Shown: positions 11,248-22,434 of the stretch, piece after piece
Position numbering within the stretch: position 1 is the first letter of the stretch
Layout: the number at the start of each line of letters is the position of its first letter
DNA from: Pelotomaculum sp. PtaB.Bin104
GTDB taxonomy: Bacteria > Bacillota > Desulfotomaculia > Desulfotomaculales > Pelotomaculaceae
DNA: 24,000 nucleotides
Direction of reading: 5' to 3'
Assembly (NCBI GenBank): GCA_002067205.1
Contig: MVQL01000164.1
Location: 42,046 to 66,045, forward strand
The notes under the pieces: model-generated
Database searches by the model: none
What the model was told of the DNA's origin: nothing
The model's input: only the letters and a program-made list of their open reading frames with translations
Made by a program: the position numbers and the translations under genes

Positions 11248-12699
11248 TTACAGGCTGTCCCCAAAGTCCTCTCTGAACTTGGCCACCAGTTTGTCCTGCC
11301 AATCTGATACAGGGCTCAATATGCCAAAGAAGAAGCGTAAAATCTTTGGCTCGTCCACAAAAGACAGCCCGCCGATCAGGGAGCGGTTCTCGTACAGCCA
11401 GCCGATGCGGTCAACGGCGTATTTTACCTGGGAAAGAGTGAAGACCCGTCGCGGCAGGGCCAGACGCAAAAGTTCCATATTGGCATAATGTTCATTGCCG
11501 TTTTCGTCTCTTTGTTCAGATAGCGTCCCCCTTTCCATACCCCGGACGCCACTGGCAATATAGAGAGCGGCGCCTAGCGCTCCGGCGGGATACAGAGACT
11601 GGGGAATATGACCGACGAATTCCATGGCGTTGAGGTGACAGCCCAGGCCGCCAGGCGGCGTCACCACCGGAACACCTTTCTTCTTGAGCTCCTCAACCAT
11701 AGAGGCGATGAATTGCGGGCCCTGGTTGATCATGTCTTCGTCCATAGTCTCTTCCAGGCCAACGGTTAGCGCTTCAATTTCACGCACGGACATCCCGCCG
11801 TAGGTGAGGAAGCCTTCATAAAGGGGAACCAGCTCACGCATTTTCAGATACAATTCTTTGCTGTTCAGACACATGCCGCCACCGCGAACACAGCCGAGTT
11901 TCCGGGCGGAAAAATAAACAATATCCGAAAGGTCCGACATGGCCCGGGTGATCTCCCTGACGCTCATATTTTTACACTTTTCTTCCCGCTCTATAATAAA
12001 GTGCAGGTTATCGGCCAAGAGGCTGGCATCCAAAACAATCAAAACCCCGAACTCGTCGCACACTTTGCGGACCTCAGCCATATTTTCCAGCGAGAACGGC
12101 TGCCCGCCAATCAGGTTGGTGCCGGCCTCCAAGCGGACAAAGGCAATTTTATCAGAGCCCTGCTCCTGGAGAAATGCTCTCAGCTTGTCAATATCGATGT
12201 TGCCTTTAAAGGGGCAGTCGCTGGTCACATTCAAGCCTTCGTCAATAACCAGTTCCTCCACACTGCCGCCGCATGCCACAATATGGGCCTTAGTAGTGGT
12301 AAAGTGGTAATTCATGGGAACGACTTTTCCTGGTTCAACAAAAACCTGGGCAAGAATATGCTCACAGGCTCTGCCCTGGTGGGCCGGCAGGAAAAACTCC
12401 TTGCCGAAAATCTCCCTAATTTTACTTTCCAACTTAAAAAAGCTTTCTGACCCGGCATAGCTGTCGTCCGCCTGCATCATTGCCGCTATCTGGTTATCGC
12501 TCATGGCGTTAACCCCGCTATCAGTAAGCATGTCCAGATAGACATCGCGGTTTTTCAGCAAAAACGTATTGTTGCCGGCTCCTGTCATCGCTTCCAGGCG
12601 CTGCTCAATAGGCAGAATATTCAACTTTTGTACAACCCTGACCTTGTGCATCTCCAGCGGTACATTTTCCCCAAAATAAAATTTCACATTTGCCATCAA
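11248..12699 (-). CDS. tryptophanase / tyrosine phenol-lyase family PLP-dependent beta-eliminating lyase
   Basis: Collinear by eye with E. coli TnaA over its whole length: LTDSG..AMS, PAHQGR, NYHFTTT, GGQP(F/V)S, the PLP-lysine region FSARKLGCVRGGG (TnaA has SAKKDAMVPMGG), EGF.TYGG, LLRLALPRR, EPK.LR.F. I cannot tell Trp from Tyr specificity by eye. TTG at 12699 or ATG at 12696; AGGAG lies 7-10 nt upstream. Confidence 0.9.
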   Translation of the reverse strand: MMANVKFYFGENVPLEMHKVRVVQKLNILPIEQRLEAMTGAGNNTFLLKNRDVYLDMLTDSGVNAMSDNQIAAMMQADDSYAGSESFFKLESKIREIFGKEFFLPAHQGRACEHILAQVFVEPGKVVPMNYHFTTTKAHIVACGGSVEELVIDEGLNVTSDCPFKGNIDIDKLRAFLQEQGSDKIAFVRLEAGTNLIGGQPFSLENMAEVRKVCDEFGVLIVLDASLLADNLHFIIEREEKCKNMSVREITRAMSDLSDIVYFSARKLGCVRGGGMCLNSKELYLKMRELVPLYEGFLTYGGMSVREIEALTVGLEETMDEDMINQGPQFIASMVEELKKKGVPVVTPPGGLGCHLNAMEFVGHIPQSLYPAGALGAALYIASGVRGMERGTLSEQRDENGNEHYANMELLRLALPRRVFTLSQVKYAVDRIGWLYENRSLIGGLSFVDEPKILRFFFGILSPVSDWQDKLVAKFREDFGDSL

Positions 12700-12772
12700 C
12701 TGGTCACTCCTATTGGTTATTTTTAATTTTAATTAATTAATAATTAACTATATTAAAGCATCCACTACCTTG

Positions 12773-12801
12773 AAAAATAAAAAAGCGCTCCTACGGAGCG
12801 C
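12773..12801 (-). terminator. intrinsic terminator closing a ~125-nt leader or sRNA upstream of the tryptophanase-family gene
   Basis: On the minus strand: GCGCTCC-GTA-GGAGCGC (12801-12785) followed by TTTTTTATTTTT. It lies ~75 nt upstream of the CDS start. Confidence 0.65.
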
Positions 12802-12904
12802 AGCATAAACAAAGGCCGGTTGCCTTATTCCTACCACTCTACCGTCAGTCCATTTTTCTTAAAGATGCTAAATATGCCTTACCATGCTACATAACTACAT
12901 GAGC

Positions 12905-12934
12905 ATTATATAACGGGATTTTATTTTGTGTAAA
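12905..12934 (-). promoter_or_regulatory. candidate sigma-A promoter driving the leader or sRNA
   Basis: On the minus strand: TTTACA (12934-12929), 18-nt spacer, TATAAT (12910-12905). It sits between two terminator hairpins. Confidence 0.4.
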
Positions 12935-12988
12935 GAAAAAAATAATGTAATATTATTGAAAAAGCTTTATTAAACTTCATAAATAAAC

Positions 12989-13018
12989 AACCGGAGGCGG
13001 GCAAGCCCGCTTCCGGTT
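12989..13018 (-). terminator. strong GC-rich hairpin; likely terminator of the ECF-operon transcript
   Basis: AACCGGAGGCGGG-loop-CCCGCTTCCGGTT, a ~13-bp stem with one G-U pair. Followed by GTTTATTTAT on minus and GTTTGCCTTTT on plus. It is ~170 nt downstream of the stop at 13189. Confidence 0.65.
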
Positions 13019-13188
13019 GTTTGCCTTTTCCTTCAGGCTTAAGTTAGGCTGACTAACCACAACTTTTTATCTAAACCATACATGTGTAAGCCATCTGCTT
13101 GTAGAAAGTATATCGCTTCAAGATGGGGAGAAAAGGTCATTATTTTCTTCGTAATTTTTACTAAAACCTTTTTTGTATTACGTGTAGA

Positions 13189-14097
13189 CTATTTCTTTCT
13201 CTTCTTAATAAATAATTCTACCCCAATCCAGCCCACAATCAGTATTCCGGCAATAATAGTCAAATAATTAGTCCAGAAAAAACCGCTTTGCGGACTAGCA
13301 GAGGCCGCGGATTCTTCTTTTTTTTCTGCAGAAGCAGCTGCCTGGTCAGTATCGGAGCTGCCAACCGCCTGCTGCCCGGCAGCATCGGTGGACTGCTGCT
13401 CTTCTGTATTCCCCGCAGATTCGGTACTGCCGCCTATACTTCCAGCACTGTCACTGGCGCCTGGTTGTACAGTTGCGACGACCGAAGCCTGATCAGCGTT
13501 GCCACCCTCACGGGATGAATCTGCCGGAGCCTGGCTTTCATCATGTGTCACCGGCGCAGGATCCTGCCCGGTAGCTTGCGCGGCTCCCTCGGTTTTAAAA
13601 GTTATGGTGATCTCTTGCCCTGCACTGGTGCCGCCAAGGGTAGATACCCCATTCTTAGCTTTCAGATCTGGAGAAATCTTTAAAGTATAAGACGTCCCCG
13701 GCTTGAGCGGAGCAGCAGGCTGAACAAATATGTGGTGACGGTTACTGAAATCGATGGTATCATCGATCTTGGTTACGGTTAAAGGTACACTCTCATTCCC
13801 CTGATCGAACAGGCTAAAACACTTGCGGTTAATTCCCCAAATCGTACTGTTGACCACGTTTTTATCGAATATCAGCTTAAATTTCGGCTCACCTGCTGGA
13901 ATGTTAACTGCATTCGACACATTCTTCCCGCTGTCCATTAAGCTTATGGATACAAAACTGAGGGGTTTCTGTCCGGGTATGCCTGAAGAGTCCGCATTTT
14001 CCCCACCCTGGGCTAAAGCAACCGGGGTAACCAGCAACATAGACAGGATTACAACGCACCAAAATAAAATGAACTTTAATTTACTGGAAAACGACAA
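13189..14097 (-). CDS. cell-surface protein: signal peptide, Ig-like (SbsA/Big_5-type) domain, acidic low-complexity linker, C-terminal TM anchor
   Basis: TTG start with AAGGGTG 7 nt upstream. Signal peptide KLKFILFWCVVILSMLLVTPVALA/QG. Beta-rich domain ending in PLKPGTSYTLKISPDLKAKNG. About 110 aa of S/A/Q/D/E-rich linker. C-terminal helix IIAGILIVGWIGVELFI followed by KKRKK. Confidence 0.8.
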   Translation of the reverse strand: MSFSSKLKFILFWCVVILSMLLVTPVALAQGGENADSSGIPGQKPLSFVSISLMDSGKNVSNAVNIPAGEPKFKLIFDKNVVNSTIWGINRKCFSLFDQGNESVPLTVTKIDDTIDFSNRHHIFVQPAAPLKPGTSYTLKISPDLKAKNGVSTLGGTSAGQEITITFKTEGAAQATGQDPAPVTHDESQAPADSSREGGNADQASVVATVQPGASDSAGSIGGSTESAGNTEEQQSTDAAGQQAVGSSDTDQAAASAEKKEESAASASPQSGFFWTNYLTIIAGILIVGWIGVELFIKKRKK

Positions 14098-14240
14098 GTA
14101 CCCACACCCTTTCCACTCTTACTAAAACGATAAAATGCAAAGGAATTCCTGCATACCGGTTCATTCGAAAATTATTTATGTTAGTTGTGGGTCATATTTT
14201 AATCAGTCAGTAATAATAGGAATTGATCAGCACATCTCAG

Positions 14241-15056
14241 CTAGATCAGGATAAACGACAGAGTAAAGGCAGACAGTATGAACGCTATCGACAGCCTATC
14301 TGCCAGCCTGTACTGAAGTCTGCTTAGTCTGGTCCTGTTCATACCCCCCGTATAGCATCTACTTTCCATAGCTATGGCAAGGTCGTTGGCCCGCTGCAGC
14401 GAAGCCGCCAATAACGGGATCAAAACCGCAGTAAAGCTTCGTAACCGGGTAATCACCTTGGGTGAGTTAAACTGGGCGCCGCGTGATCGCTGAGCCCTGG
14501 TCAGGGTTTCCGCCTCTTCAATGATAGTCGGGATAAAGCGCAGCGAGGTGCTAATCAGCATGGAAAGCTGGTGCACCGGAATCCTGGCATAGCGCAAGGG
14601 CGAAAGCAAAGACTCGATCCCTGAGGCCAGTCTCAGCGGAGAAGTAGTGGTGGTCAGTAAAATCGAGCTCATATACAGGATCATCAGGCGAAAGACAGTA
14701 GAAAGCCCCAAATTGACCCCTTCTCTGGTTATCTTAAAAACCCCTAGTTGAAATAACAGCTCACCCGTAGTTAGGGTAGCCTGAAAAATAAAGGACAGCA
14801 GTAAAATATACCTGAGCTTGCGCAGGCCGCGCAATATCTTTGCCGCTTTCACTCCTGAGAAATAGAAAGCGGCGGAGAGAATAGTTACATTTAAACAGAT
14901 CACATACCACTGGAAATTAATTAAGACGGAAAAAATAATTAATAGACAGCCGATGATTTTGGTCCTGGGATCGAGCCGGTGAATAATCGAGTTACCGAGG
15001 ACAAATTGTCCCATTTTCAAGCCCTGATCCTGATTTTTTCTCATTTTTCTTCTCAT
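14241..15056 (-). CDS. ecfT: ECF transporter transmembrane (T) component
   Basis: IHRLDPRTKI near the N-terminus and the two Arg-containing coupling helices (SPLRLASGIESLL..., ...AQRSRGA) are typical of EcfT/CbiQ. ATGA overlap with the upstream ATPase gene. An internal start at MGQFVLG is possible. Confidence 0.9.
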   Translation of the reverse strand: MRRKMRKNQDQGLKMGQFVLGNSIIHRLDPRTKIIGCLLIIFSVLINFQWYVICLNVTILSAAFYFSGVKAAKILRGLRKLRYILLLSFIFQATLTTGELLFQLGVFKITREGVNLGLSTVFRLMILYMSSILLTTTTSPLRLASGIESLLSPLRYARIPVHQLSMLISTSLRFIPTIIEEAETLTRAQRSRGAQFNSPKVITRLRSFTAVLIPLLAASLQRANDLAIAMESRCYTGGMNRTRLSRLQYRLADRLSIAFILSAFTLSFILI

Positions 15057-15901
15057 TCCAGCAGCCTCCTGATCTCCCGTTCAGCTTCAGCCAAAGTAAC
15101 AACTCCAGTGTTGACTTTTTGCCCTCGCGCTGCTAGATCATACATCAGTTGCAGGTAGTCGGGCAGCAGAATGTCGGGCAGTTCCCGAAAATCTTTGCGG
15201 GACAAAATTTCTTTCGGGGTCCCGGCAGCCACCAGAGACCCTCCGTCCAAGACCGCCATCCGCCCGGTTAGGTTGATAATATCCCTGATACTATGTGAGA
15301 TCATGATCACCGTTACACCATATTCCTGCTGCAACCTTTGGAGCAACTGCAAAATCATGTCCCGCCCCGCGGGATCGAGTCCGGCTGCCGGTTCGTCCAG
15401 TACCAGGATTTCCGGTCGGATTGCCAGAACCCCGGCGATGGCGACACGCCGGCGCAGTCCACCGCTCAGGCAAATTGGCGGCTGCGCCGCTACTTCGTCA
15501 GGCTCAAGACCGACAAGCCGCAAGGCCTCAATTACCCGCTTTTCGATTTCCTGTTTATCCAAGCCGAGATTTCTGGGGCCATAGGAGACATCTTCAAAGA
15601 CGGTGCTTTCAAAAAGCTGCTGCTCCGGATACTGAAAGACCATGCCCACTTTCTTCCAAAGGGTGCGGGCATATTGCTCGTCCATAGTATCTTTACCGCC
15701 GACCAACACCTGTCCTTCCCCTGGCGTGAGAAGGCCGTTAAATTGCTGCACCAGGGTCGTCTTGCCGGAGCCGTTCGCCCCCACGATGCCAAAAAAATCA
15801 CCTTTCTGTACGGAAAGGTTGATGCCGTTTAGGGCCTTTTTCTCATAGGGGGTACCCGGGTTGTAAGTATAGCTTAGATTTTTCACTTCTATGATTGACA
15901 T
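15053..15901 (-). CDS. ecfA2: ECF transporter ATPase component (second of pair)
   Basis: Walker A GANGSGKTT, signature LSGGLRRRVAIAG, Walker B ILVLDEPAAGLD, H-loop ISHS. The start overlaps the ecfA1 stop by 13 nt. Confidence 0.9.
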   Translation of the reverse strand: MSIIEVKNLSYTYNPGTPYEKKALNGINLSVQKGDFFGIVGANGSGKTTLVQQFNGLLTPGEGQVLVGGKDTMDEQYARTLWKKVGMVFQYPEQQLFESTVFEDVSYGPRNLGLDKQEIEKRVIEALRLVGLEPDEVAAQPPICLSGGLRRRVAIAGVLAIRPEILVLDEPAAGLDPAGRDMILQLLQRLQQEYGVTVIMISHSIRDIINLTGRMAVLDGGSLVAAGTPKEILSRKDFRELPDILLPDYLQLMYDLAARGQKVNTGVVTLAEAEREIRRLLE

Positions 15902-16743
15902 AAGTATTCCACCATTTTTGGCACAGTGATGATATTTCGGTCAATCTGGAAGCCGCTTCTTCTTAAATTTTCCGCAAGTTGCACGATTTCGGGAGGCCTT
16001 AAGCCGGCTGCGGCCAATTGTTCCGATGCTGTAAAAACCTCCGCGGGCGTACCGGTCATGTAAATACCCCCCTGGTGCAGCACTACTATTCGGTCAGCTC
16101 CGACAACATCCTCCATATTATGAGAAATTAATATCACAGTAATGTTGTACTCTTGATTGAGAGCAGTCAAAATTTCACCCAACTCACGCCTGCCCCTAGG
16201 GTCAAGCATGGAGGTCGGCTCATCCAGAACCAGGTGAGACGGGCGCATGGCTAGTGCGCAGGCAATGGCCACTTTTTGTTTCTGGCCGCCGGAAAGCATA
16301 TGTGGCGCGTGCTGGCGCAGTTCCGTCAGCCCGACCGCCTGCAGGGACCATTCGACACGCTCGCTGATTTCCGCGCGGGAAAGCCCCAGGTTCTCAGGCC
16401 CAAAAGCGATATCCTCCTCCACTATGGAGCTGATAATCTGATTGTCGGGATTTTGAAACACCATCCCCACCTGGCGTCTGATCTCGATTAGAGACCTGCT
16501 AGCGGCAGTGTCAAGGCCGTTAACATAGACCTTGCCCGCCGTCGGCTTAATTAGGCCGTTGACCAGCCTGGCCAGGGTTGATTTTCCCGAACCGTTCATT
16601 CCTAAAAGGCCGACAAATTCCCCCTGTCTGACCGTCAAGCTGACGTCGTTGAGGGCAATTTTACTTAAAGGTTGTCCCACATTAAATTCCTTGGTAACAT
16701 TGACCAGCTCAATGCTGCCTTCAAACATAAGGGTTGTGTCCAC
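15889..16743 (-). CDS. ecfA1: ECF transporter ATPase component (first of pair)
   Basis: Walker A GMNGSGKST, Q-loop, signature LSGGQKQKVAIACAL, Walker B HLVLDEPTSMLD, H-loop ISHN. Start uncertain: GTG at 16743 abuts the GGGAG, and the alternative ATG at 16728 gives MFEGSIELVNV. Confidence 0.9.
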   Translation of the reverse strand: MDTTLMFEGSIELVNVTKEFNVGQPLSKIALNDVSLTVRQGEFVGLLGMNGSGKSTLARLVNGLIKPTAGKVYVNGLDTAASRSLIEIRRQVGMVFQNPDNQIISSIVEEDIAFGPENLGLSRAEISERVEWSLQAVGLTELRQHAPHMLSGGQKQKVAIACALAMRPSHLVLDEPTSMLDPRGRRELGEILTALNQEYNITVILISHNMEDVVGADRIVVLHQGGIYMTGTPAEVFTASEQLAAAGLRPPEIVQLAENLRRSGFQIDRNIITVPKMVEYLCQS

Positions 16744-16804
16744 TCCCTGCTTGCTGCAAATAATGTTTAGTATTTGGTGGCCAAACTTCAGCTATAAATC
16801 ATTT

Positions 16805-17398
16805 TCACTCCCAATTGGTCAGCCTTGGCTTGAGCCGCTTAATCAAAATAGCGGCGATAATCCCCCCGGCAGCGCCGAACACAGTATGGGTCAGTGAGGA
16901 AAAACCCAGGCCCAGCGCGATAAACCCCGTCGGGAGCTTAAGCAGTACTGCCAGGGCGAGGTTAACCACCAGCTTGGCCAAACTGGTCAGGGTACCGCAG
17001 ATAGCTCCAACAAACGGGTTCTCGAGACGGTAGTTGAAAAATGGTGCGATCAGGTCAAGCAGCAGACCCGGTATAAAGTACTTAAAAAAAACAAAAACGC
17101 CTTCTTTGCCCAGGCCCAGCAGTACAGCCAGCGCTCCCGATATAATACCCATGATCATGCCGGCCCCAAACTTGGGAATCAGACCTTTGCCCAGGACCAG
17201 GATGCCCATCCAGTAAATGCTCGAATGGCCGGGCACGTGCAAGGGCAACCGGGTTATATCCTTGGTGATGGCTATCAGTGTGCCAAACATGGTCAACCTG
17301 AGGACATCGGCCAGGCCTAGCTTAAAGATGAACCGTTCGGATACCGGTATATGATCATTTTCCCGCTTACCTTTGGTTCCGATTAACTCTTCCTGCAC
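16805..17398 (-). CDS. polytopic membrane protein; candidate substrate-capture (S) component of the adjacent ECF module
   Basis: About 200 aa with ~5-6 Gly-rich TM helices, a size and position (immediately upstream of ecfA1A2T) typical of group-I S components. I do not recognise the S-component family, so the specificity is unknown. Start placed at GTG 17398, with GGAG 8 nt upstream; the ORF-track start at 17407 abuts the RBS. Confidence 0.6.
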   Translation of the reverse strand: MQEELIGTKGKRENDHIPVSERFIFKLGLADVLRLTMFGTLIAITKDITRLPLHVPGHSSIYWMGILVLGKGLIPKFGAGMIMGIISGALAVLLGLGKEGVFVFFKYFIPGLLLDLIAPFFNYRLENPFVGAICGTLTSLAKLVVNLALAVLLKLPTGFIALGLGFSSLTHTVFGAAGGIIAAILIKRLKPRLTNWE

Positions 17399-17521
17399 CT
17401 CATCCACTCCAGTTATGACTTCAATTGTTATAATGTATTGACTTCACTAAGATCATTCACCGGGGAACGCTGCTATTTTCTTTGAATCAAGTGACTGTTA
17501 ACATGTTTACTGTGCATATCA

Positions 17522-17959
17522 TCAGTCGATTATGTTGATTTCACTGACATCCTCCACCAGAAAATGCCGGTAGTCCCTTTTTGTACAGAGGCCAACGGTA
17601 CCGCGATCAGTAAGGCACAGAATATAGTCCTCATTGATTTCATCTCTGTGGGCCTGGAAAGACGATCCGCCGTTTAGACCGATGACTTTCGCATTTTTAA
17701 ATTCACCTATCCCCGCTGCGCCCATCACATACAGGAGGCTAGGTCCCCTAGCCTCCTCGTCGTTAGGGAATTCTTGTTCCATTAAAGCTTTCATCACATC
17801 GGTACCCATAAGGGCAACCAAGTTGTTGTTGTCCAGCATCCGGATTACTGTGCCTGAATGCAAGCTCCGCTCCTTTGATATGTTCTCGAATATAAAAGAA
17901 CCTGCTACCAGCAATAAGATGATCATACCGCTCAATATGATTTTTTTATTCAAAGACAT
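17522..17959 (-). CDS. membrane-anchored protein of unknown function (N-terminal signal-anchor, ~115-aa extracytoplasmic domain)
   Basis: Start placed at MSLNKKIILSGMIILLLVAGSFIF (ATG 17959), with GGGTGA 8 nt upstream. The ORF-track GTG at 17971 has no RBS. No family recognised. Confidence 0.65.
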   Translation of the reverse strand: MSLNKKIILSGMIILLLVAGSFIFENISKERSLHSGTVIRMLDNNNLVALMGTDVMKALMEQEFPNDEEARGPSLLYVMGAAGIGEFKNAKVIGLNGGSSFQAHRDEINEDYILCLTDRGTVGLCTKRDYRHFLVEDVSEINIID

Positions 17960-18025
17960 CGCTTTAATCACCCGATATTTATGAACTATTACTCATAATT
18001 TAATGCCACATAACTCCAGCCAAAA

Positions 18026-18778
18026 TTAATATCCCTTCAACTGTTGCTTGGTGAGTGTCTGCCAGGTTGCACCGCAAGCGTCCCCGGCCACAATTGGAGC
18101 TACCAGCAAAACATACTTACCGTCCATCATAACCGGCTTTACCATATCCCCAAGACGCACAAGTTCATCATCCGCCAGCAAGGCCCCATCCGGGCTCTTA
18201 ACCATGGCAATATTGGTCTGAGACCGAATGCTTCCAACATCGGCTACACCATTTGCGCTTTTTAATTTAAGCTTACCCCTCAAGCGGCCGTCATTACCGC
18301 TTAAACGCAAACCCACCCCGGCCAGTGCACCGATAATCCCCTGACCGGTGCCGCCATGTTCGGAAAGGTGCACACCCAGCTGCTGCGCCAGGCTATACGC
18401 CTCCTGCTTGGTGATCACAACCTCCTTGGCTTTACGGCCAAAAGCAATAAGCAGATCAGGCTGGCTAAGCCGGTCCGGAACCGCGATACACAGGCCTGGA
18501 TCAGACCCAGACGCACTTTCTTTAATTATATACTCGGTAGCATAACTTGTTAAAGAATCTAGGTCAGTATCATTTACTTCTGCGACAAAACACATCGAGC
18601 TGTTATGCGAGGTGTACGGGACATCCGGATGTATCAACAACTGGTGCCGGGTCACACCGTAACTCTTGCCCCAGCCTTGCTCTTCCATAGTCTCTGATAT
18701 TGAGTAAACCAGTTCACCGGTACCCCACGCACTATCAATTCTGTCAGTATCATCAGCACATAATAAAACCCGTATCAA
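18026..18778 (-). CDS. stand-alone TiaS-kinase-domain (TCKD)-like protein (hypothesis); otherwise conserved hypothetical
   Basis: The ORF track gives 18026..18814 (ATG, no RBS). TTG at 18778 has GGGAGG 9 nt upstream and yields (M)IRVLLCADDTDR.. Ordered motifs: DDTD, HPDVPYTSHNSSMCFVAEV, SDPGLCIAV, HGGTGQGIIGALAGVGLRL. From memory these match the TiaS N-terminal domain. No OB-fold or Zn-ribbon region is present. Confidence 0.7.
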   Translation of the reverse strand: MIRVLLCADDTDRIDSAWGTGELVYSISETMEEQGWGKSYGVTRHQLLIHPDVPYTSHNSSMCFVAEVNDTDLDSLTSYATEYIIKESASGSDPGLCIAVPDRLSQPDLLIAFGRKAKEVVITKQEAYSLAQQLGVHLSEHGGTGQGIIGALAGVGLRLSGNDGRLRGKLKLKSANGVADVGSIRSQTNIAMVKSPDGALLADDELVRLGDMVKPVMMDGKYVLLVAPIVAGDACGATWQTLTKQQLKGY

Positions 18779-18845
18779 TTCTTTTAACCTCCCTAGGTCA
18801 TTTTTATTCTGCATAATACAATTTTTGTTGGCTCTTTTTTACCTA

Positions 18846-19097
18846 TTAACTGACTGGAAAACCTTTATAACAACTGAATCCAGAGCGTGCCCACCGCCTG
18901 AATCGACAGTTGTAACAGGTCAACGCATCTTCAAGGAAAGACTCCTCCTCTACATCATCTTGATAAACCGGACAGGCTTTGGCAAGAATCTCAGCGGCAC
19001 TGAGGTCATCCCTAACATTGCTGTCCCCGGTAAAATATTTAGTACCATCCTTTTCCCTAATATATTTTGATAAAACATCTCTGACGGAATTGTCCAT
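18846..19097 (-). CDS. small acidic protein with four Cys (C42, C61-x2-C64, C76); possible metal or Fe-S binding
   Basis: ATG preceded by GGGGGAG with a 7-nt spacer. 83 aa. The stop is 31 nt before the ORF-track start of the TiaS-like gene. No family recognised. Confidence 0.65.
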   Translation of the reverse strand: MDNSVRDVLSKYIREKDGTKYFTGDSNVRDDLSAAEILAKACPVYQDDVEEESFLEDALTCYNCRFRRWARSGFSCYKGFPVS

Positions 19098-19266
19098 AGG
19101 CTATTCTCCCCCGCAATAATAACTTATTTTTTAAAAGAAATTAATTTCACTTTTATACCCTCCTGCGCTCCTGACATCCATAGGCGGAGCATTCAGGTCA
19201 AGATAACCACCTTCAGGAAGACATAAATATTTATCCGTGTTACGGCCTAGCTTTAACCTAATACAG

Positions 19267-21270
19267 TTATATGCTTGTGCTAATTTCCAATATCTCTGAG
19301 ATATCCATTACTTTTATGTTTTTTTCATGTGCATCTACCGGTGTGTCTTTAGCGAAGGCCGTCAGACAATACGGGCAAGCCGTACAGACCACCTCCGCTC
19401 CACTTGCGGCGGCTTCAACAATACGGTTATTAGTGATTTGGTTGTTTGTTTTAACCTTGGTCCAAGCCCGGCCCCCCCCGGCGCCGCAACAAAAAGAACT
19501 GTTTCTGGAGCGGGCCATTTCGATCAGCCGGACGCTGGGAATGGCCGTTAAAACTTCCCTGGGCTCGTTAAAGGTTTCATTGTAGCGGCCAAGATAACAG
19601 GGATCATGGTAGGTGATGGTTTTATCAAGGTTTTTAACAGGCCTTAGTCTCCCCTTTTTCAATAGTTCGGCCAGAAAGACAGAGTGGTGATTGACATTGT
19701 ATGCTGCGCCAAACTGGGGATACTCATTATTCAAGGTATTGAAACAATGCGGACAGGCAGTTATGATTTTTTTGACCCCCTTATTGTTCCAGGCAGATAT
19801 GTTATTCTGAACAATTTTTTGGTAAAGTCGTTCATCCCCCATTCGGCGTGCTGCTTCCCCACAACACCACTGGTCATTTCCCAAAACAGCAAAATCAACT
19901 CCGGCCCTCTTAAGAACCTCGATCATGGCTTTGGTGGTTTTCCTGGCCTGCTCGTCAAATAAACCGGCACAGCCAACAAAATAAAAATATTCTGCGCTTG
20001 GGTGATTATCCAGGGTCGGCACCTCTAATTTCCTGATCCAATCATAAGCGGCATCAGGGTCTAAACCCCAGGGGTTGCCTTGATGTTCTATACCGGTACA
20101 CACCTTCCTCACTTCTTCTGGAACGTTCTGCTGTGCAGATATAATGTAACGGCGCATTTCGAATAGTCTGGCTGTGTGCTCGATAGAAATCGGGCAGATT
20201 TCCACGCATGCCCCGCAGGTGGTACAGTTCCAGATAAACTCGTCTTCAAAAACATCTCCAGTGATGTTTTTCTTTAGTACTTTCCGCTCTGTTTCAGTAG
20301 CTTTTTTGTATCGCGAAGCTTGCGGTAACGCACTGTACTTCATTAGAACAGGCGCCTTTTGGTCTATATGCTTGCGCAGGCGCCCGTTGAACCGCTTTGG
20401 TTTATGCTGTTCACCGCTCTGGTGAGAGGGACAATGTTCATCACAGCGGCCGCATTTGACACAGGCATAGGCGTCAAACAATTGCTTCCAGGTAAAGTCC
20501 TCCAAATTATTGGCTCCAATAGAAACCTCTTCCCCATCCAATTCAATCTTCCTGATCGCTCCTTTTGGCTCGAGCTTATGCCAGTAGGTATTAAAGGGAG
20601 CAAAAACCAGGTGCAGGTGCTTGGAGCGCGGTATGATAAAGAATAAAGCAAACACAGCCAAAAAGTGCGACCAAAAGAAAATGGTGCCCACTCTTTCCAT
20701 GCTGTTTCTATCCATGTTACCTAACCAGCCGGCAATAGCGGCCGCTAAAGGGGCAAACCCGGCCGGGACGTCGTTTTCGCCCAGGGCGATTTGGACCCCG
20801 TGAAACGAAGCCTCAGAAATGATAATGATTAGGATTAACAAAATAATTACGAATGCGATCGGAGTGTTTTTAAGCCACTGTGGCTTAAAAATTGTTCTGC
20901 GCAGAAGTAAACCAACACACGCAACTATGATAAAAATAGCAAATACATCTTTTATCAACAGGTAAACCAGATTATCGCCAATATAGGGAATTCTGGTAGA
21001 AAACAGGCCTTCCGCAACCATGTTCACCATGCCTGCCAGCAGAAACAAAAACCCCCATAGGATAAACCAGTGTAAAACCCCAAAGAGAGGCTTTTGCATT
21101 ATTCTCTTATGGCACAACAACTGGGAGAAAAAATAAATTAGCCGCCTGCCGGGATGGTCTGAACGATCTTCCGGCCTGCCCAGCTTGGTGTAAAGGTAGC
21201 GCCTGTAAACCTCGTAGAAGAAAAACCCTCCGGAAATAATTAATAGGGCAAAAAAAATAATTGCTTCCAT
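19267..21270 (-). CDS. membrane-bound Fe-S oxidoreductase: N-terminal multi-TM (NarI/DsrM-like) domain fused to an HdrD/DsrK-like module with 2x[4Fe-4S] motifs and two CCG domains
   Basis: Start moved to MEAIIFFALL.. (ATG 21270), with GGAGG 8 nt upstream. About 6 TM helices. Ferredoxin motifs CVKCGRCDEHCP and CTTCGACVEICP. Cys-rich CCG-type repeats: VGCAG...WCCGEA...CPHC, then HDPCYLGR...FCCGAGGG...CPYC. Confidence 0.9.
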   Translation of the reverse strand: MEAIIFFALLIISGGFFFYEVYRRYLYTKLGRPEDRSDHPGRRLIYFFSQLLCHKRIMQKPLFGVLHWFILWGFLFLLAGMVNMVAEGLFSTRIPYIGDNLVYLLIKDVFAIFIIVACVGLLLRRTIFKPQWLKNTPIAFVIILLILIIIISEASFHGVQIALGENDVPAGFAPLAAAIAGWLGNMDRNSMERVGTIFFWSHFLAVFALFFIIPRSKHLHLVFAPFNTYWHKLEPKGAIRKIELDGEEVSIGANNLEDFTWKQLFDAYACVKCGRCDEHCPSHQSGEQHKPKRFNGRLRKHIDQKAPVLMKYSALPQASRYKKATETERKVLKKNITGDVFEDEFIWNCTTCGACVEICPISIEHTARLFEMRRYIISAQQNVPEEVRKVCTGIEHQGNPWGLDPDAAYDWIRKLEVPTLDNHPSAEYFYFVGCAGLFDEQARKTTKAMIEVLKRAGVDFAVLGNDQWCCGEAARRMGDERLYQKIVQNNISAWNNKGVKKIITACPHCFNTLNNEYPQFGAAYNVNHHSVFLAELLKKGRLRPVKNLDKTITYHDPCYLGRYNETFNEPREVLTAIPSVRLIEMARSRNSSFCCGAGGGRAWTKVKTNNQITNNRIVEAAASGAEVVCTACPYCLTAFAKDTPVDAHEKNIKVMDISEILEISTSI

Positions 21271-21392
21271 ATTGCCTGCCTCCTGCATATCCAACGAAAA
21301 CACCTGGGGAATATATCCGTTGTTCATCCGGTCACATCAACTCTATCTGAGATCTAGCGTTATTTTCGTAAAAACAAGTCTTAAAATATAAT

Positions 21393-21429
21393 TGCCGGGC
21401 CATCTTTGCGAAAAACAAAGCTGGCCCGG
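21393..21429. other. long near-perfect hairpin upstream of the Fe-S oxidoreductase gene
   Basis: GCCGGGCCA-t-CTTTG-CGAAAAA-CAAAG-c-TGGCCCGGC: 14 bp with one internal mismatch. On the minus strand it is followed by AATTATATTTT, which is only moderately U-rich. It could be a terminator insulating the operon from the AT-rich island, or a protein or RNA structural site. Confidence 0.5.
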
Positions 21430-22434
21430 CATAGCCTTCAAGCCCAGCTCTCCTTTTCGTAATGGAAGGCACACTTGTTTCCCGGTGTACCCTGTCGTCC
21501 AACAACCATAGCGATATGCTTTAGGTAAGTTTGGATCGGAGAGATAATTTGTATCTTATTCGTATTTTTTTCGACTATCATAGAGCAAATTCCTGCAATA
21601 AAATCTTGGAAACTTAAAAATATTACTTTTGTGTAAACTGCATGCCGAAATGTTTGATAATTAAAAACACTATTAACAACTAAAATAACCATTATTTACT
21701 TAGAGGTGATATCCAACATTAGTAGAACCATTTTTAGCAACAAAGGAGGTGTATTGGAAGCCGGTGATGCGGCCGGTAACTGGAGCACCAACGGTCCATG
21801 TAAAACCGTGATCACACCGTTTAAAAAATCATACATGCAATTTTATCAATTCAAATACTGGGAAAGACCCTTGCGTTTTATTGACATTTTGTTCAAATAG
21901 AAAAGCTGAATTACATCTTTGTGCGATCACCTAAATTGATCTAACAGATCGCGATGAATTAGATAGACTTATGCATAATAAGCTCACATTTATATATATA
22001 TGCTCCCATTAAGGTAGACAGTTAATATAAAAAACTGTGTGCCGAAAGGGGAGCATTTTCTATGCCACAAAAGAGTAAAGTACTATTCATAAAAATATAT
22101 AAAACCTATTCATAATTGTTTTTTAATTTATCAACTGCTCTTTTTAACTTATGATGAAATTACGGTTAAGGATAGTTACACTGAATTGGGATATGCCAAA
22201 ATCGAGTTATTGCTCAAAAAGCTCGAAGGTGGAAGGTTGGAAAATAAGGTTGGGCTACTCAGTGAGTTCCTCCATTTCAGAATAATGCGATATTCCTGAG
22301 GTTTGAAACGAATCGTGTCATTCATATGGACTGGTAAAATTCGCAAAAGATTACTTGTAACATAGGTAAACTAGTAAGAAAATCAGACCTCAAAACCTGT
22401 CACCTTTTCGGTGGTTTTTTTTGTCTATTTTGTA

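Follow-up and report, generated by a model that had tools for sequence, protein, structure and literature searches.

A P3-less Moco riboswitch heads an ECF transporter operon in Pelotomaculum sp. PtaB.Bin104 and points to uptake in the tungsten-cofactor regulon

The window, i.e. the whole 24,000-nucleotide stretch of Pelotomaculum sp. PtaB.Bin104 DNA that was analysed, contained an operon of about 8.6 kb on the minus strand (12984 - 21553), which is headed by a tungsten-cofactor-type (P3-less) Moco riboswitch. The first-pass annotation had described a run of nine same-strand genes in 13189 - 19097, of which it listed eight. The run is real, but only eight ORFs, all on the minus strand, were read in this region; a ninth same-strand gene, coding for a 686-aa HdrD/E-like protein (19267 - 21327), does exist just beyond it. 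The region first described is thus the distal part of the operon, which starts approximately 2.3 kb further upstream. The short gaps or overlaps reported between the genes were found (every gap is below 175 nt), as was the lack of an internal terminator, no strong stem followed by a T-run occurring in any intergenic gap of the 13189 - 19097 run. Similarly, RNA folding of the 170-nt gap between the Hdr-like gene and the next gene revealed no significant structure (z = -0.36), and the Hdr-like gene and the ECF genes presumably share one transcript across this gap. The run ends at an 18-bp GC-rich, bidirectional terminator-like hairpin (12984 - 13023, assigned to neither strand), previously placed at 12989 - 13018, whose minus-strand tail (ATTTATGAAGTTT) is merely moderately T-rich.

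The riboswitch aptamer (21434 - 21553; minus strand) matched Rfam family RF01055 with 62.4 bits (E 5e-13; gathering score 36) over the full model (1 - 135) and lies directly upstream of the Hdr-like gene. Its P3 stem is deleted in the alignment, which assigns it to the tungsten-cofactor (Tuco) class; indeed, P3-less RNAs of this riboswitch class correlate with tungsten-cofactor metabolism (Regulski 2008, PMC2408646). It was the sole Rfam match at E up to 1 within 12700 - 22400, a search in which TPP, cobalamin and NiCo riboswitches did not appear. The earlier view that no riboswitch was recognisable upstream is therefore wrong; the first-pass annotation could not connect the operon with a substrate, and this RNA points to tungsten-cofactor metabolism. 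The aptamer is followed by a terminator-like expression platform (21379 - 21431; minus strand), consisting of a strong hairpin and a U-rich tail (stem GCCGGGCCAG...AUGGCCCGGC, then AAUUAUAUUUU). The segment 21375 - 21470 folded at -38.2 kcal/mol (z = -3.94), none of 200 shuffled sequences being as stable, and the platform would act as an OFF-switch.

The first gene after the riboswitch (minus strand) encodes an HdrD/E-like membrane iron-sulfur protein that comprises a NarI-like membrane part, a 4Fe-4S dicluster and two CCG domains (Pfam matches CCG, 134.5 bits; Fer4_8; and Nitrate_red_gam, weak). It is followed by the gene for a cytoplasmic 83-aa mini-protein (18846 - 19097; minus strand) with four cysteines, as initially annotated, which had no Pfam or NCBIfam match. 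The 53 copies in the window and the related loci share the consensus A..C..F..D.E.E...D...SCYNCR.RRW...SF.C. Its conserved partner is a stand-alone TiaS-kinase-domain-like (TCKD-like) protein of about 250 aa (18026 - 18778; minus strand). The ORF of the latter was called first as 18026 - 18814; all 26 aligned homologues begin at its codon 13, a TTG at 18778 preceded by GGGAGG, and the start was corrected to this codon. NCBIfam scores were far under the cut-offs (methanogenesis marker 11, 45.5 bits; TiaS, 28 bits), and the family profile matched the N-terminal kinase domain of TiaS in the PDB (E ~5e-8) with residues 1 - 157 only. At least 5997 homologues were retrieved, and the motifs DDTD, TRHQ, PYTSHNSxMCF, GSDPGxC, HGGxGxG and NDGR are invariant; the protein is probably an ATP-using enzyme.

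The ECF importer cluster proposed earlier was recovered with all three energy-coupling subunits above curated cut-offs, namely the ATPases EcfA1 (ecfA1; 15889 - 16743; NCBIfam TIGR04520, 355.5 bits, cut-off 315) and EcfA2 (ecfA2; 15053 - 15901; TIGR04521, 338 bits, cut-off 330) and the transmembrane coupling subunit EcfT (ecfT; 14241 - 15056; Pfam PF02361, CbiQ, 130.4 bits), all on the minus strand. The 13-nt overlap between ecfA1 and ecfA2 and the 4-nt ATGA overlap between ecfA2 and ecfT were confirmed, and AQRSRG and AMESRC in EcfT resemble the two coupling-helix motifs. The polytopic protein of about 200 aa is indeed the S component, and it can be placed in a family, contrary to what had been stated, as the HMM search suggested at that time returned the YkoE-like Pfam family PF09819 (COG4721; 30.5 bits, cut-off 25.2). 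Its ORF (16805 - 17407) has 200 codons for amino acids, and translation probably starts at 17398, giving 197 aa (16805 - 17398; minus strand). The AlphaFold model has six helices (pLDDT 83) and an ECF S-component fold; every Foldseek match with a probability of at least 0.85 was an ECF S component, the best being YkoE (5edl; 16% identity), followed by RibU, ThiT, PanT and the S subunits of 4huq and 4hzu. Database names of homologues include 'ECF transporter S component' and 'Core component Dace_2067 of predicted ECF transporter'. A CbiM/NikM match was not obtained in the Pfam search, and by sequence and model the S component is of the vitamin type, unlike the CbiM/NikM metal type.

Two exported proteins flank this module. 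The signal-anchored 145-aa protein described before was found at 17522 - 17959 (minus strand; ORF 17522 - 17971, counted from the ATG at 17959), and its AlphaFold model (pLDDT 81) consists of an N-terminal helix (residues 3 - 31) and an alpha/beta domain (pLDDT ~90). The best five Foldseek matches in the PDB were PruR pterin-binding proteins throughout (E 3.9e-4 to 4e-3, probability 1.0; TM 0.5, 12 - 15% identity), pointing to a predicted extracytoplasmic fold of the degenerate SUOX/PruR-like, pterin-binding-like kind. In PruR, the pterin-binding site is equivalent in position to the Moco site of SUOX enzymes (PMC11194511). Searching Pfam and the PDB by sequence with the family gave no matches, and no twin-arginine motif was read in the sequence. 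The family HMM did match a 156-aa lipoprotein of Petroclostridium (L027; E 1.4e-5; hhalign E 1.6e-4) that carries the molybdopterin-binding domain PF00174 (40.6 bits) and, apart from the lipobox cysteine, no other cysteine; its gene heads an operon with the order riboswitch - FecCD - ABC - binding protein - TiaS-like - mini. The second exported protein (13189 - 14097; minus strand) has a Big_5 (Ig-like) domain (Pfam, 28.7 bits; cut-off 23.6) and a low-complexity linker, and both its N-terminal signal peptide and its C-terminal membrane segment, as annotated before, were read in the sequence. That ECF importers need no extracytoplasmic helpers was too strong a premise, since Ni/Co ECF systems carry CbiN, NikN, NikK or NikL. 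Moreover, the partnership of both exported proteins with the ECF genes is conserved, the order anchored - S - A1 - A2 - T - Big_5 recurring in Pelotomaculum, Sporomusa and also Paenibacillus, the last with an unassigned 409-aa gene before Big_5.

Comparison with 82 related genome loci around the TiaS-like gene (1.29 Mb including the window) revealed that gene order recurs across genera, but that the eight-gene block behaves as a set of modules and not as a fixed unit. Clostridium polyendosporum contains all eight families in a different order, and in one locus (L026) anchored - S - TiaS-like - mini follow one another directly, uninterrupted by an ECF module. The mini-gene partners the TiaS-like gene; of the 79 loci with at least 400 nt downstream of the latter, 52 have it on the same strand at a distance of up to 7 kb. 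The pair was found beside this ECF module, beside a MolBC-A-like FecCD-type ABC importer, or without any transporter next to it. In 35 of the 45 fully flanked loci, an importer is encoded on the strand of the TiaS-like gene and no more than 7 kb away from it (28 FecCD-type and eight ECF-type, one locus having both), and Big_5 homologues occur in 25 of these 45, beside either importer type; many Firmicute operons are headed by large SLH/Big_5 surface proteins. The order riboswitch - Hdr-like - mini was also present in Desulfoscipio geothermicus (L002, L091) and Pelotomaculum isophthalicicum (L090), and in the latter species tandem riboswitch copies head Hdr - mini - anchored - S - A1 - A2 - T - Big_5. 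A model built from Rfam-confirmed copies counted 69 riboswitches in the 1.29 Mb, 68 of them in the related loci and 64 of these on the strand of the TiaS-like gene. A same-strand riboswitch is located at most 10 kb upstream of the TiaS-like gene in 37 of the 82 loci, often some 90 - 110 nt ahead of it or immediately preceding the transporter operon. In two loci (L085, L091), the TiaS-like and mini pair forms a riboswitch-controlled unit of its own, with no adjacent ECF or FecCD importer. Mo/W-cofactor neighbours comprise MoaA, MoaC, MoaD, MoaE, MoeA, MoeB, MogA/MoaB, MOSC, MobB-like, TupABC-like and AOR proteins, the Moa/Moe, TupABC, MOSC and tungsten aldehyde oxidoreductase genes being frequent.

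The operon is very probably an uptake system within the tungsten-cofactor regulon. More specifically, it may be a dedicated ECF importer that feeds tungsten-cofactor synthesis, with a pterin-type cargo favoured (probability of this full reading, cargo included, roughly 0.45); this cargo would be a molybdopterin-like building block, bare or loaded with metal, tungstate (free or complexed) being the main alternative. When the tungsten cofactor is scarce, the riboswitch would permit read-through, as the terminator-like platform and the known behaviour of the class suggest. The HdrD/E-like protein, the first gene product in this lineage, would then be made together with a putative dedicated importer (YkoE-like S component, EcfA1, EcfA2 and EcfT), the anchored SUOX/PruR-like protein, the surface Big_5 protein and the cytoplasmic TiaS-like and 4-Cys mini pair. 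The exported proteins may take up a cofactor-related cargo outside the membrane and hand it over to the S component; by homology, the ECF module would import it at the expense of ATP, after which the kinase-like enzyme and its Cys-rich partner may process it with ATP or feed tungsten-cofactor assembly. A bulky, cofactor-like cargo is suggested by the fold of the anchored protein together with the PruR binding site, by the PF00174 lipoprotein that its family HMM matched, by the vitamin-type S component, by helper genes common to ECF and type II (BtuCD-like) importers, by the SLH/Big_5 proteins heading many Firmicute operons, by one Geobacter locus in which the ECF genes are flanked by TonB and a TonB-dependent receptor, and by a separate TupABC-like tungstate transporter that has its own riboswitch in the same loci. 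Against the pterin reading, the PruR likeness comes from a predicted structure, and the genes for molybdopterin biosynthesis are present in these organisms too, which makes them independent of salvage; the pair alone under a riboswitch may serve cofactor assembly generally rather than an imported cargo. Also counted against this explanation are ten loci with an adjacent S component of the family found here, in which no riboswitch was found (L007, L026, L037, L038, L049, L053, L063, L080, L088 and L089). No published description was found, and the operon may represent a hitherto undescribed way for anaerobic bacteria to obtain tungsten or a building block of the cofactor.

Alternatively, though somewhat unlikely, the system could import tungstate, or thio- or complexed tungsten or molybdenum, and would be the ECF equivalent of the MolBC-A-like FecCD systems, which take its place in most related loci. 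In that case, the anchored and Big_5 proteins would concentrate an oxyanion or metal complex at the membrane, and the TiaS-like and mini proteins would use ATP to activate, store or insert the metal in the cytoplasm; the four conserved cysteines and RRW motif of the mini-protein could hold a metal or oxyanion. The binding protein of the FecCD-type variant is nearest to the uncharacterised binding protein 4ovk and to MolA (3psa/3psh), which it matched at E 4.5e-30, versus 1e-18 or weaker for binders of siderophores, haem and nickel. This favours an oxyanion cargo, since molybdate and tungstate are the ligands of MolA, although it is described as low-affinity (PMC4031551), and known regulons of this riboswitch class include molybdate and tungstate transporters (PMC2408646). 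In Geobacter, an anion-selective porin gene (Porin_O_P) follows the TiaS-like and mini pair under a riboswitch, but the same Geobacter loci already possess the TupABC-like tungstate transporter, and for so small a cargo as an oxyanion one would not expect a TonB-dependent receptor, surface Ig-like proteins or a SUOX/pterin-fold binder to be necessary. In addition, the S component is not of the metal type, and we know of no ECF transporter for an oxyanion.

A division of the transcript into two modules, with Hdr-like, mini and TiaS-like proteins for cofactor maturation or insertion and a merely co-regulated importer from the anchored to the Big_5 protein, is improbable. It would accommodate the differing gene orders, the occurrence of Hdr - mini - TiaS-like alone in Desulfoscipio and of TiaS-like and mini alone in Geobacteraceae, and the ECF blocks of Paenibacillus durus and Pelotomaculum isophthalicicum, which have no TiaS-like gene next to them. 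However, the prevalence of same-strand importers near the TiaS-like gene (35/45) and the contiguity in L026 speak against it, and that the same pair accompanies two unrelated importer types is easier to account for by a functional link than by chance co-regulation. Disfavoured, and very improbable, is an ordinary characterised ECF system, be it a thiamine/hydroxymethylpyrimidine YkoE system, a Ni/Co CbiMNQO/NikMNQO system, or merely the housekeeping EcfAA'T module shared within the cell, beside which an unrelated gene happens to lie. PF09819 membership and the structural proximity to YkoE would fit it, as would one source that names homologues thiamin/HMP permease and the general ECF ATPase equivalogs matched by EcfA1 and EcfA2. 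Yet the family score is only 30.5 bits and the identity to 5edl 16%, the S component had no CbiM/NikM match in Pfam, the Moco/tungsten riboswitch was the one Rfam match at E up to 1, and the context in related genomes is that of Mo/W-cofactor genes, not of thiamine, cobalt or nickel genes. Furthermore, S - A1 - A2 - T - Big_5 is kept as a unit in three Firmicutes genera and, with one extra gene, in Paenibacillus.

An ECF-type transporter operon that codes for conserved exported and cytoplasmic partner proteins and begins with a riboswitch of the tungsten-cofactor class was found in the window (coordinates without a locus label refer to the window). The first-pass annotation had recognized no riboswitch upstream of these genes; Rfam, however, matched the Moco/tungsten riboswitch (RF01055; 21434-21553, minus strand; 62.4 bits versus a gathering score of 36; E 5e-13; model positions 1-135) ahead of a gene coding for an HdrD/E-like protein. 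This was the sole Rfam match at E up to 1 within 12700-22400, and no TPP riboswitch was found there at that threshold. The riboswitch lacks the P3 stem, the P3 columns being deleted in the cmscan alignment; tungsten-cofactor (Tuco) metabolism correlates almost perfectly with P3-lacking representatives (Regulski et al. 2008; PMC2408646). A strong hairpin with a U-rich tail, terminator-like (z = -3.94), lies 3' of the aptamer and may act as a transcriptional OFF switch.

The first gene 3' of the riboswitch (19267-21327, minus strand) encodes the HdrD/E-like protein (686 aa), which possesses two CCG domains, a 4Fe-4S dicluster, and a NarI-like membrane part. It is followed by the minus-strand genes of an 83-aa cytoplasmic 4-Cys protein (further referred to as the mini-protein), a stand-alone TiaS-kinase-domain-like protein (the TiaS-like protein), a 145-aa exported membrane-anchored protein (the anchored protein), a polytopic S component, EcfA1, EcfA2, EcfT, and a Big_5 protein. 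Nine same-strand genes had initially been counted in 13189-19097; the run is indeed consecutive, but the ORF map holds eight genes, eight had actually been listed, and the HdrD/E-like gene, just beyond that range, is the ninth. The gene lengths and junctions agreed with the earlier description, including the 13-nt overlap of ecfA1 and ecfA2 and the ATGA overlap of ecfA2 and ecfT, the other intergenic gaps in the ORF map measuring 31 to 143 nt. Similarly, the strong hairpin reported at the end of the run was retrieved (18 bp; 12984-13023; ~165 nt past the last gene), and the reported lack of a convincing internal terminator held for every intergenic gap of the run in a promoter/terminator scan, of which the number of sites did not exceed that in shuffled sequence. 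As the 170-nt spacer between the HdrD/E-like and mini-protein genes has no significant structure (z = -0.36) and the riboswitch lies upstream of it, the transcription unit would most simply extend from 21553 to ~12984, suggesting operon continuity from the riboswitch through the ECF genes. The TiaS-like protein most likely starts at the TTG codon at 18778, which is preceded by GGGAGG, since the corresponding position is the start in 26 of 26 aligned homologues; for the S component, 17398 is the probable start, which gives 197 instead of 200 aa.

Concerning the transporter itself, the ATPases, EcfT, and the S component identify the module as an ECF importer, import being predicted from the sequences. 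EcfA1 and EcfA2 scored above the cut-offs of the NCBIfam equivalogs TIGR04520 (355.5 bits versus 315) and TIGR04521 (338 bits versus 330), respectively. EcfT matched PF02361 (EcfT/CbiQ family; 130.4 bits) and contains AQRSRG and AMESRC, which resemble the two Arg-containing coupling motifs. The 200-aa protein had earlier been placed in no known S-component family, but an HMM search assigned it to PF09819 (YkoE family) with a score just above the cut-off (30.5 bits versus 25.2). Its AlphaFold model comprises six helices (pLDDT 83), and all Foldseek matches in the PDB with a probability of at least 0.85 (5edl, 3p5n, 4tkr, 5kbw, 5kc0, and 6zg3, together with 4huq_S and 4hzu_S, the S subunits of two solved ECF complexes) are ECF S components, YkoE (5edl) being the best, followed by RibU, ThiT, and PanT. 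Thus, family membership and the S-component-only structural matches make the protein placeable as the S component of a recognized fold family. Its homologues carry database names such as 'ECF transporter S component' and 'Core component Dace_2067 of predicted ECF transporter'; PDB sequence searches with the S component and with the Big_5 protein returned no meaningful match. In Bacillus subtilis YkoEDC, YkoE (PDB 5edl) is the S component (PMC5037267). As in YkoEDC and Group I (dedicated) ECF vitamin transporters in general, the S component, two ATPases, and the T component are encoded together here, and PF09819 membership and the best structural match are shared with YkoE. Unlike YkoEDC, the window has an S component that is only 16% identical and barely exceeds the family cut-off, and its operon contains a tungsten-cofactor riboswitch, two exported helpers, and a cytoplasmic enzyme pair. 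Such helpers are not unprecedented in ECF systems, as the Ni/Co systems CbiMNQO and NikMNQO are dedicated ECF modules that need extra small membrane or extracytoplasmic proteins (CbiN, NikN, NikK, and NikL). Unlike in those systems, the S component is not CbiM/NikM-like (a Pfam scan at E up to 0.1 gave no match to that family), the helper proteins bear no relation to theirs, and the operon is not regulated by a B12 riboswitch or NikR.

The anchored protein belongs to a small family (54 representatives in 1.84 billion). It had no Pfam match, neither the single protein nor a 42-member family profile had a PDB sequence match, and a Pfam scan of the 42 members yielded scattered noise without a match to PF00174. 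Its AlphaFold model (pLDDT 81; domain ~90) gave confident Foldseek matches in the PDB to PruR only (top five matches with E 3.9e-4 to 4e-3, probability 1.0, and TM 0.50), so that the predicted structure points to a small exported protein of SUOX-like fold. PruR, which resides in the periplasm and adopts a degenerate SUOX fold, lacks the Mo-ligand cysteine and binds pterins at the position matching the Moco site (PMC11194511). Furthermore, the first gene of a related operon in Petroclostridium (locus L027; riboswitch, FecCD, ATPase, binding protein, TiaS-like protein, and mini-protein) encodes a 156-aa lipoprotein with the oxidoreductase molybdopterin-binding domain PF00174 (40.6 bits versus a cut-off of 24), of which the lipobox cysteine is the sole cysteine. 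The HMM of the anchored-protein family matched this PF00174-bearing lipoprotein with E 1.4e-5 (hhalign E 1.6e-4; probability 50%). Like PruR, the anchored protein is a small exported single-domain protein, and both it and the Petroclostridium lipoprotein lack the conserved Mo-ligand cysteine. Unlike PruR, it showed no sequence membership in the Pfam and PDB searches, carries a membrane anchor instead of a cleaved signal peptide, is paired with a transporter instead of a DcpA-type signalling protein (the window contains no DcpA-like gene), and comes from Firmicutes, not Proteobacteria. As the anchored protein, which has an N-terminal TM helix and no twin-arginine motif, and the lipoprotein carry Sec-type and not twin-arginine signals, both would be exported unfolded, without cofactor, which would fit a binding role better than an enzymatic one. 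The Big_5 protein, the other exported helper, combines a signal peptide and a C-terminal anchor with an Ig-like domain and a low-complexity linker; in Firmicutes, it accompanies both ECF and FecCD importer types.

On the cytoplasmic side, the TiaS-like family comprises at least 5997 homologues of ~248 aa with strikingly invariant motifs. In the PDB, its profile matched the TiaS kinase domain (TCKD) with E ~5e-8 over residues 1-157 only, including the DDTD motif, which in TiaS binds nucleotide and Mg. The TiaS-like protein is probably an ATP-using enzyme. Although its N-terminal ~157 residues match the kinase domain of TiaS, the archaeal tRNA-Ile2 agmatidine synthetase, it differs from the latter in lacking the ferredoxin-like, OB-fold, and zinc-ribbon tRNA-binding domains (~250 aa versus ~420 aa) and in being bacterial and part of a tungsten-cofactor regulon. 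That it would be TiaS itself was ruled out by the absence of tRNA-binding domains and by a score far under the cut-off of the NCBIfam TiaS equivalog (28 bits versus 600); the score for methanogenesis marker protein 11 was 45.5 bits, with an NCBIfam cut-off of 255.8. The mini-protein, for which no Pfam or NCBIfam match was found, has four conserved cysteines, an acidic stretch, and the motif SCYNCR.RRW, and in related loci its gene pairs with the TiaS-like gene, usually downstream. Together, both proteins may perform an ATP-dependent processing, activation, or loading step tied to tungsten-cofactor assembly. A RiPP-like pair, with the mini-protein as precursor peptide and the TiaS-like protein as activating enzyme, was rejected because conservation of the mini-protein spans the entire C-terminal half, neither an exporter nor a protease occurs alongside it, and it is partnered by importers. 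The TiaS-like family profile also matched PDB 3u02 (E 4.3e-5), a stand-alone protein of 252 aa from Pyrococcus furiosus that was deposited as a 'putative transcription-associated protein TFIIS'. Since P. furiosus depends on tungsten, the link between stand-alone kinase-like proteins and this metal may be a wider one. In three Syntrophomonadaceae loci (L033, 8377-10789; L041, 8453-10765; L043, 6181-8449), three tandem TiaS-like paralogues, 35-54% identical to the query, precede a single mini-protein gene.

To place the operon among its relatives, 80 loci were fetched around TiaS-like homologues (Desulfotomaculaceae, Syntrophomonadaceae, Geobacteraceae, Desulfuromonadaceae, and others), and more were obtained via exact-protein look-ups. 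These loci were mapped by tblastn and HMM, the detection of the short mini-protein by tblastn being incomplete. As they were picked via the TiaS-like gene, the statistics describe the neighbourhood of that gene and not of all S components of the window family. A same-strand importer was present within 7 kb of the TiaS-like gene in 35 of the 45 loci in which each flank measured at least 5 kb; it was of the FecCD type in 28 of these 45 loci and of the ECF type in eight, with both in one. The FecCD variant has the order Big_5, FecCD, ATPase, Peripla_BP_2, TiaS-like protein, and mini-protein, and its binding protein matched MolA (E 4.5e-30), which binds molybdate and tungstate (PMC4031551). FecCD or MolA-like genes were absent from the window. 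Most related loci carry, beside the TiaS-like and mini-protein genes, a set comparable to MolBC-A, the type II molybdate/tungstate importer of Haemophilus influenzae, and both are linked to Mo/W; the window, unlike MolBC-A, has an ECF module instead. MolBC-A is not known to have Big_5, SUOX-like, or TiaS-like partners or a Moco/tungsten riboswitch. An S component of the window family occurred in 16 distinct related loci, 15 of which were fetched around the TiaS-like gene. The order from the anchored protein over S, A1, A2, and T to Big_5 recurs in Pelotomaculum isophthalicicum and Sporomusa ovata, and in Paenibacillus durus with an extra 409-aa gene before Big_5; in Clostridium polyendosporum, all eight families are together in a different order. 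Hence, of the gene block described earlier, the part from the anchored protein to Big_5 is conserved in relatives, but the whole is modular and not fixed. Indeed, an HdrD/E-like, mini-protein, and TiaS-like set stands alone in Desulfoscipio geothermicus, as do TiaS-like and mini-protein genes in one Geobacteraceae locus, and in locus L026 the anchored protein, S component, TiaS-like protein, and mini-protein occur without an adjoining ECF module.

Across many genomes, the system is embedded in Mo/W-cofactor gene neighbourhoods. Copies of RF01055 were retrieved in many related loci at the Rfam gathering threshold, and a covariance model built from 22 Rfam-confirmed copies found 69 copies with E below 1e-3 in 1.29 Mb (the window plus 82 loci). 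Of the 68 copies in loci, 64 were on the strand of the TiaS-like gene, and in 37 of 82 loci a copy on this strand lay no more than 10 kb upstream of the gene. All copies but one had the P3-less length, the model itself having been built from P3-less copies. In Geobacter and Desulfuromonas, the riboswitch typically lies ~90-110 nt ahead of the TiaS-like gene; in Firmicutes, it lies directly ahead of the Big_5 and FecCD operon or of a giant SLH/Big_5 surface protein heading the operon. In P. isophthalicicum, tandem riboswitches are followed by HdrD/E-like protein, mini-protein, anchored protein, S, A1, A2, T, and Big_5, which is the arrangement of the window without the TiaS-like gene. Neither Rfam nor the covariance model found a riboswitch in ten S-component-bearing loci, indicating that riboswitch regulation is frequent but not universal.

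As for the neighbouring genes, two Geobacteraceae loci contain the riboswitch, TiaS-like, and mini-protein set amid genes for MoaA, MOSC, a tungsten aldehyde oxidoreductase (AOR), MoaD, MoeB, MoaE, TupABC-like proteins, and MoeA, with MoaC and MogA/MoaB also present in the locus that extends far enough. In Geobacter (L086, identical to L011; 11254-16635), ECF genes (fused A-A ATPase, CbiQ, and a 187-aa S component) lie between genes for a TonB-dependent receptor and TonB, all downstream of riboswitch, TiaS-like, and mini-protein genes, an unusual coupling of an ECF importer to TonB-dependent outer-membrane uptake; the other Geobacteraceae locus has an anion porin in addition. Similarly, in two loci of the Clostridia type, a MoeA-PBP_like fusion (638 aa) and a 145-aa MOSC protein are encoded directly upstream of the anchored and TiaS-like proteins in L019 (785-3605), and a MOSC protein directly ahead of the anchored protein in L026 (8559-9999), where a sigma-54 activator was seen downstream of the mini-protein gene. 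In the closest relative of the window (83% identity), the riboswitch, mini-protein, and TiaS-like set is followed by SLH/Big_5, Big_5, FecCD, ATPase, and binding protein, with an AOR gene further along. Its second riboswitch operon (L087, identical to L001; 837-8625) encodes a purple-acid-phosphatase-like Metallophos protein, two ABC ATPases, CbiQ, a MobB-like protein with an Fe-S motif, a RIO1/APH-like kinase, a 75-aa protein, an amino-acid-kinase-family protein, and Big_5; no S component was evident in this operon.

Riboswitch regulation and gene neighbourhood both support a link to Mo/W-cofactor metabolism, and we estimate the probability that the uptake is linked to the tungsten cofactor at about 85%. 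Within that general claim, a pterin-type cargo is favoured, albeit tentatively. Several features suggest a pterin- or cofactor-like cargo: the S component is of the vitamin type, SUOX/PruR-like binding proteins are present, ECF and type II ABC importers replace each other, Gram-negative versions have a TonB-dependent receptor and Gram-positive versions surface Ig-like proteins, and the same loci hold separate TupABC-like genes. That tungstate or complexed tungsten would be imported instead is rather unlikely, although MolA, a molybdate/tungstate binder, is the closest characterized relative of the binding protein of the FecCD variant. It is improbable that two modules are joined here by regulation alone. 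Finally, a thiamine, Ni/Co, or housekeeping ECF system is highly improbable. YkoEDC is under TPP-riboswitch control, and a YkoE-type thiamine/HMP system was dismissed because no TPP riboswitch was found in 12700-22400 at E up to 1 and the neighbours in relatives are Mo/W-cofactor genes; a CbiMNQO/NikMNQO-type Ni/Co system was dismissed because the S component had no CbiM/NikM match in the Pfam scan at E up to 0.1.

It is possible, if somewhat doubtful, that the operon and its FecCD counterparts represent the first described bacterial uptake or salvage of a molybdopterin-type cofactor or its tungsten-loaded form. In such a system, the cargo would be captured outside the cell by a SUOX-fold protein and brought in through an ECF or type II ABC importer, the stand-alone TiaS-kinase-like enzyme and its 4-Cys partner would process it in an ATP-dependent way, and the end product would feed back on expression via the tungsten-cofactor riboswitch. 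Cobalamin uptake by BtuB-BtuFCD and ECF-CbrT is under the control of cobalamin riboswitches, and Gram-negative versions involve a TonB-dependent receptor, as is present in L086 here. By analogy, a riboswitch sensing the finished cofactor would control uptake, and one cargo class may be served by either a type II ABC or an ECF importer; unlike in cobalamin uptake, the riboswitch, the S-component family, and the helpers all differ here. No description of the system was found in the open-access literature searched, in which the only match for tungsten and ECF concerned cobalt CbiMNQO. The transporter class is known, and the regulon, the SUOX-like, Big_5, TiaS-like, and mini-protein partners, and the possible cargo are new. 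No routes to the cofactor are known to have been described other than de novo molybdopterin synthesis and tungstate/molybdate transporters (Tup, Wtp, and Mod). In syntrophs, sulfate reducers, and metal reducers, a central role is played by tungsten enzymes such as aldehyde oxidoreductases, formate dehydrogenases, and class II benzoyl-CoA reductase, which also attract biotechnological interest for CO2 and acid reduction. The system, apparently undescribed so far, is frequent within the tungsten-cofactor riboswitch regulon and has two interchangeable importer versions, with the TiaS-like proteins, a large family of putative enzymes, at its core. It makes testable whether bacteria take up environmental pterin cofactors or unusual tungsten species, and which role is played by stand-alone TiaS-kinase-like proteins, relatives of methanogenesis marker 11.

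Several further features were seen in the related loci. Tandem pairs of P3-less riboswitches occur in L090 (2843-3124 and 10313-10832), L068 (1631-1898), and L055 (2235-2547), as well as in L005, L008, L009, L048, and L059, preceding single genes or operons (an Hdr-like gene, giant surface proteins, or an outer-membrane-like protein); tandem Moco RNAs have been noted before in S. wolfei and G. metallireducens (PMC2408646). Copies opposite to the strand of the TiaS-like operon were found in L001 (8777-8894, minus strand), L058 (9172-9495, minus strand), and L009 (2272-2391, minus strand), of which the copy in L001 points into the 3' end of a Big_5 gene and might act in antisense. In many Firmicute loci, giant surface proteins with lengths from 837 aa to more than 1900 aa are encoded by the first gene past the riboswitch (L068, 2003-6082; L029, 2893-5970; L005, 3222-6035; L059, 3484-5997; L035, 1649-5050; L090, 12957-16624); they contain SLH domains, most of them with Big_5 and/or SWM_repeat, and their position directly 3' of the riboswitches indicates that cell-surface proteins belong to the tungsten-cofactor regulon. 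Riboswitches of the c-di-GMP-I class lie near the system in L049 (7827-7901, between the S-component and TiaS-like genes) and L081 (14591-14691, minus strand). The remaining genes of the window are unrelated and encode a phosphofructokinase, a subtilase, an enoyl-CoA hydratase, a glyoxalase, a methyltransferase, an MFS transporter, and a tryptophanase-like protein. A 6S RNA (RF00013; 8660-8844, minus strand; 65.7 bits; full model), likewise unrelated to the operon, was also found. The tryptophanase/tyrosine phenol-lyase-like gene (11248-12699) has its own near-consensus promoter-like site (TTTACA-18-TATAAT; 12905-12934, minus strand), and its leader contains a GC hairpin with a T-run (12785-12801, minus strand) that may be an attenuator.
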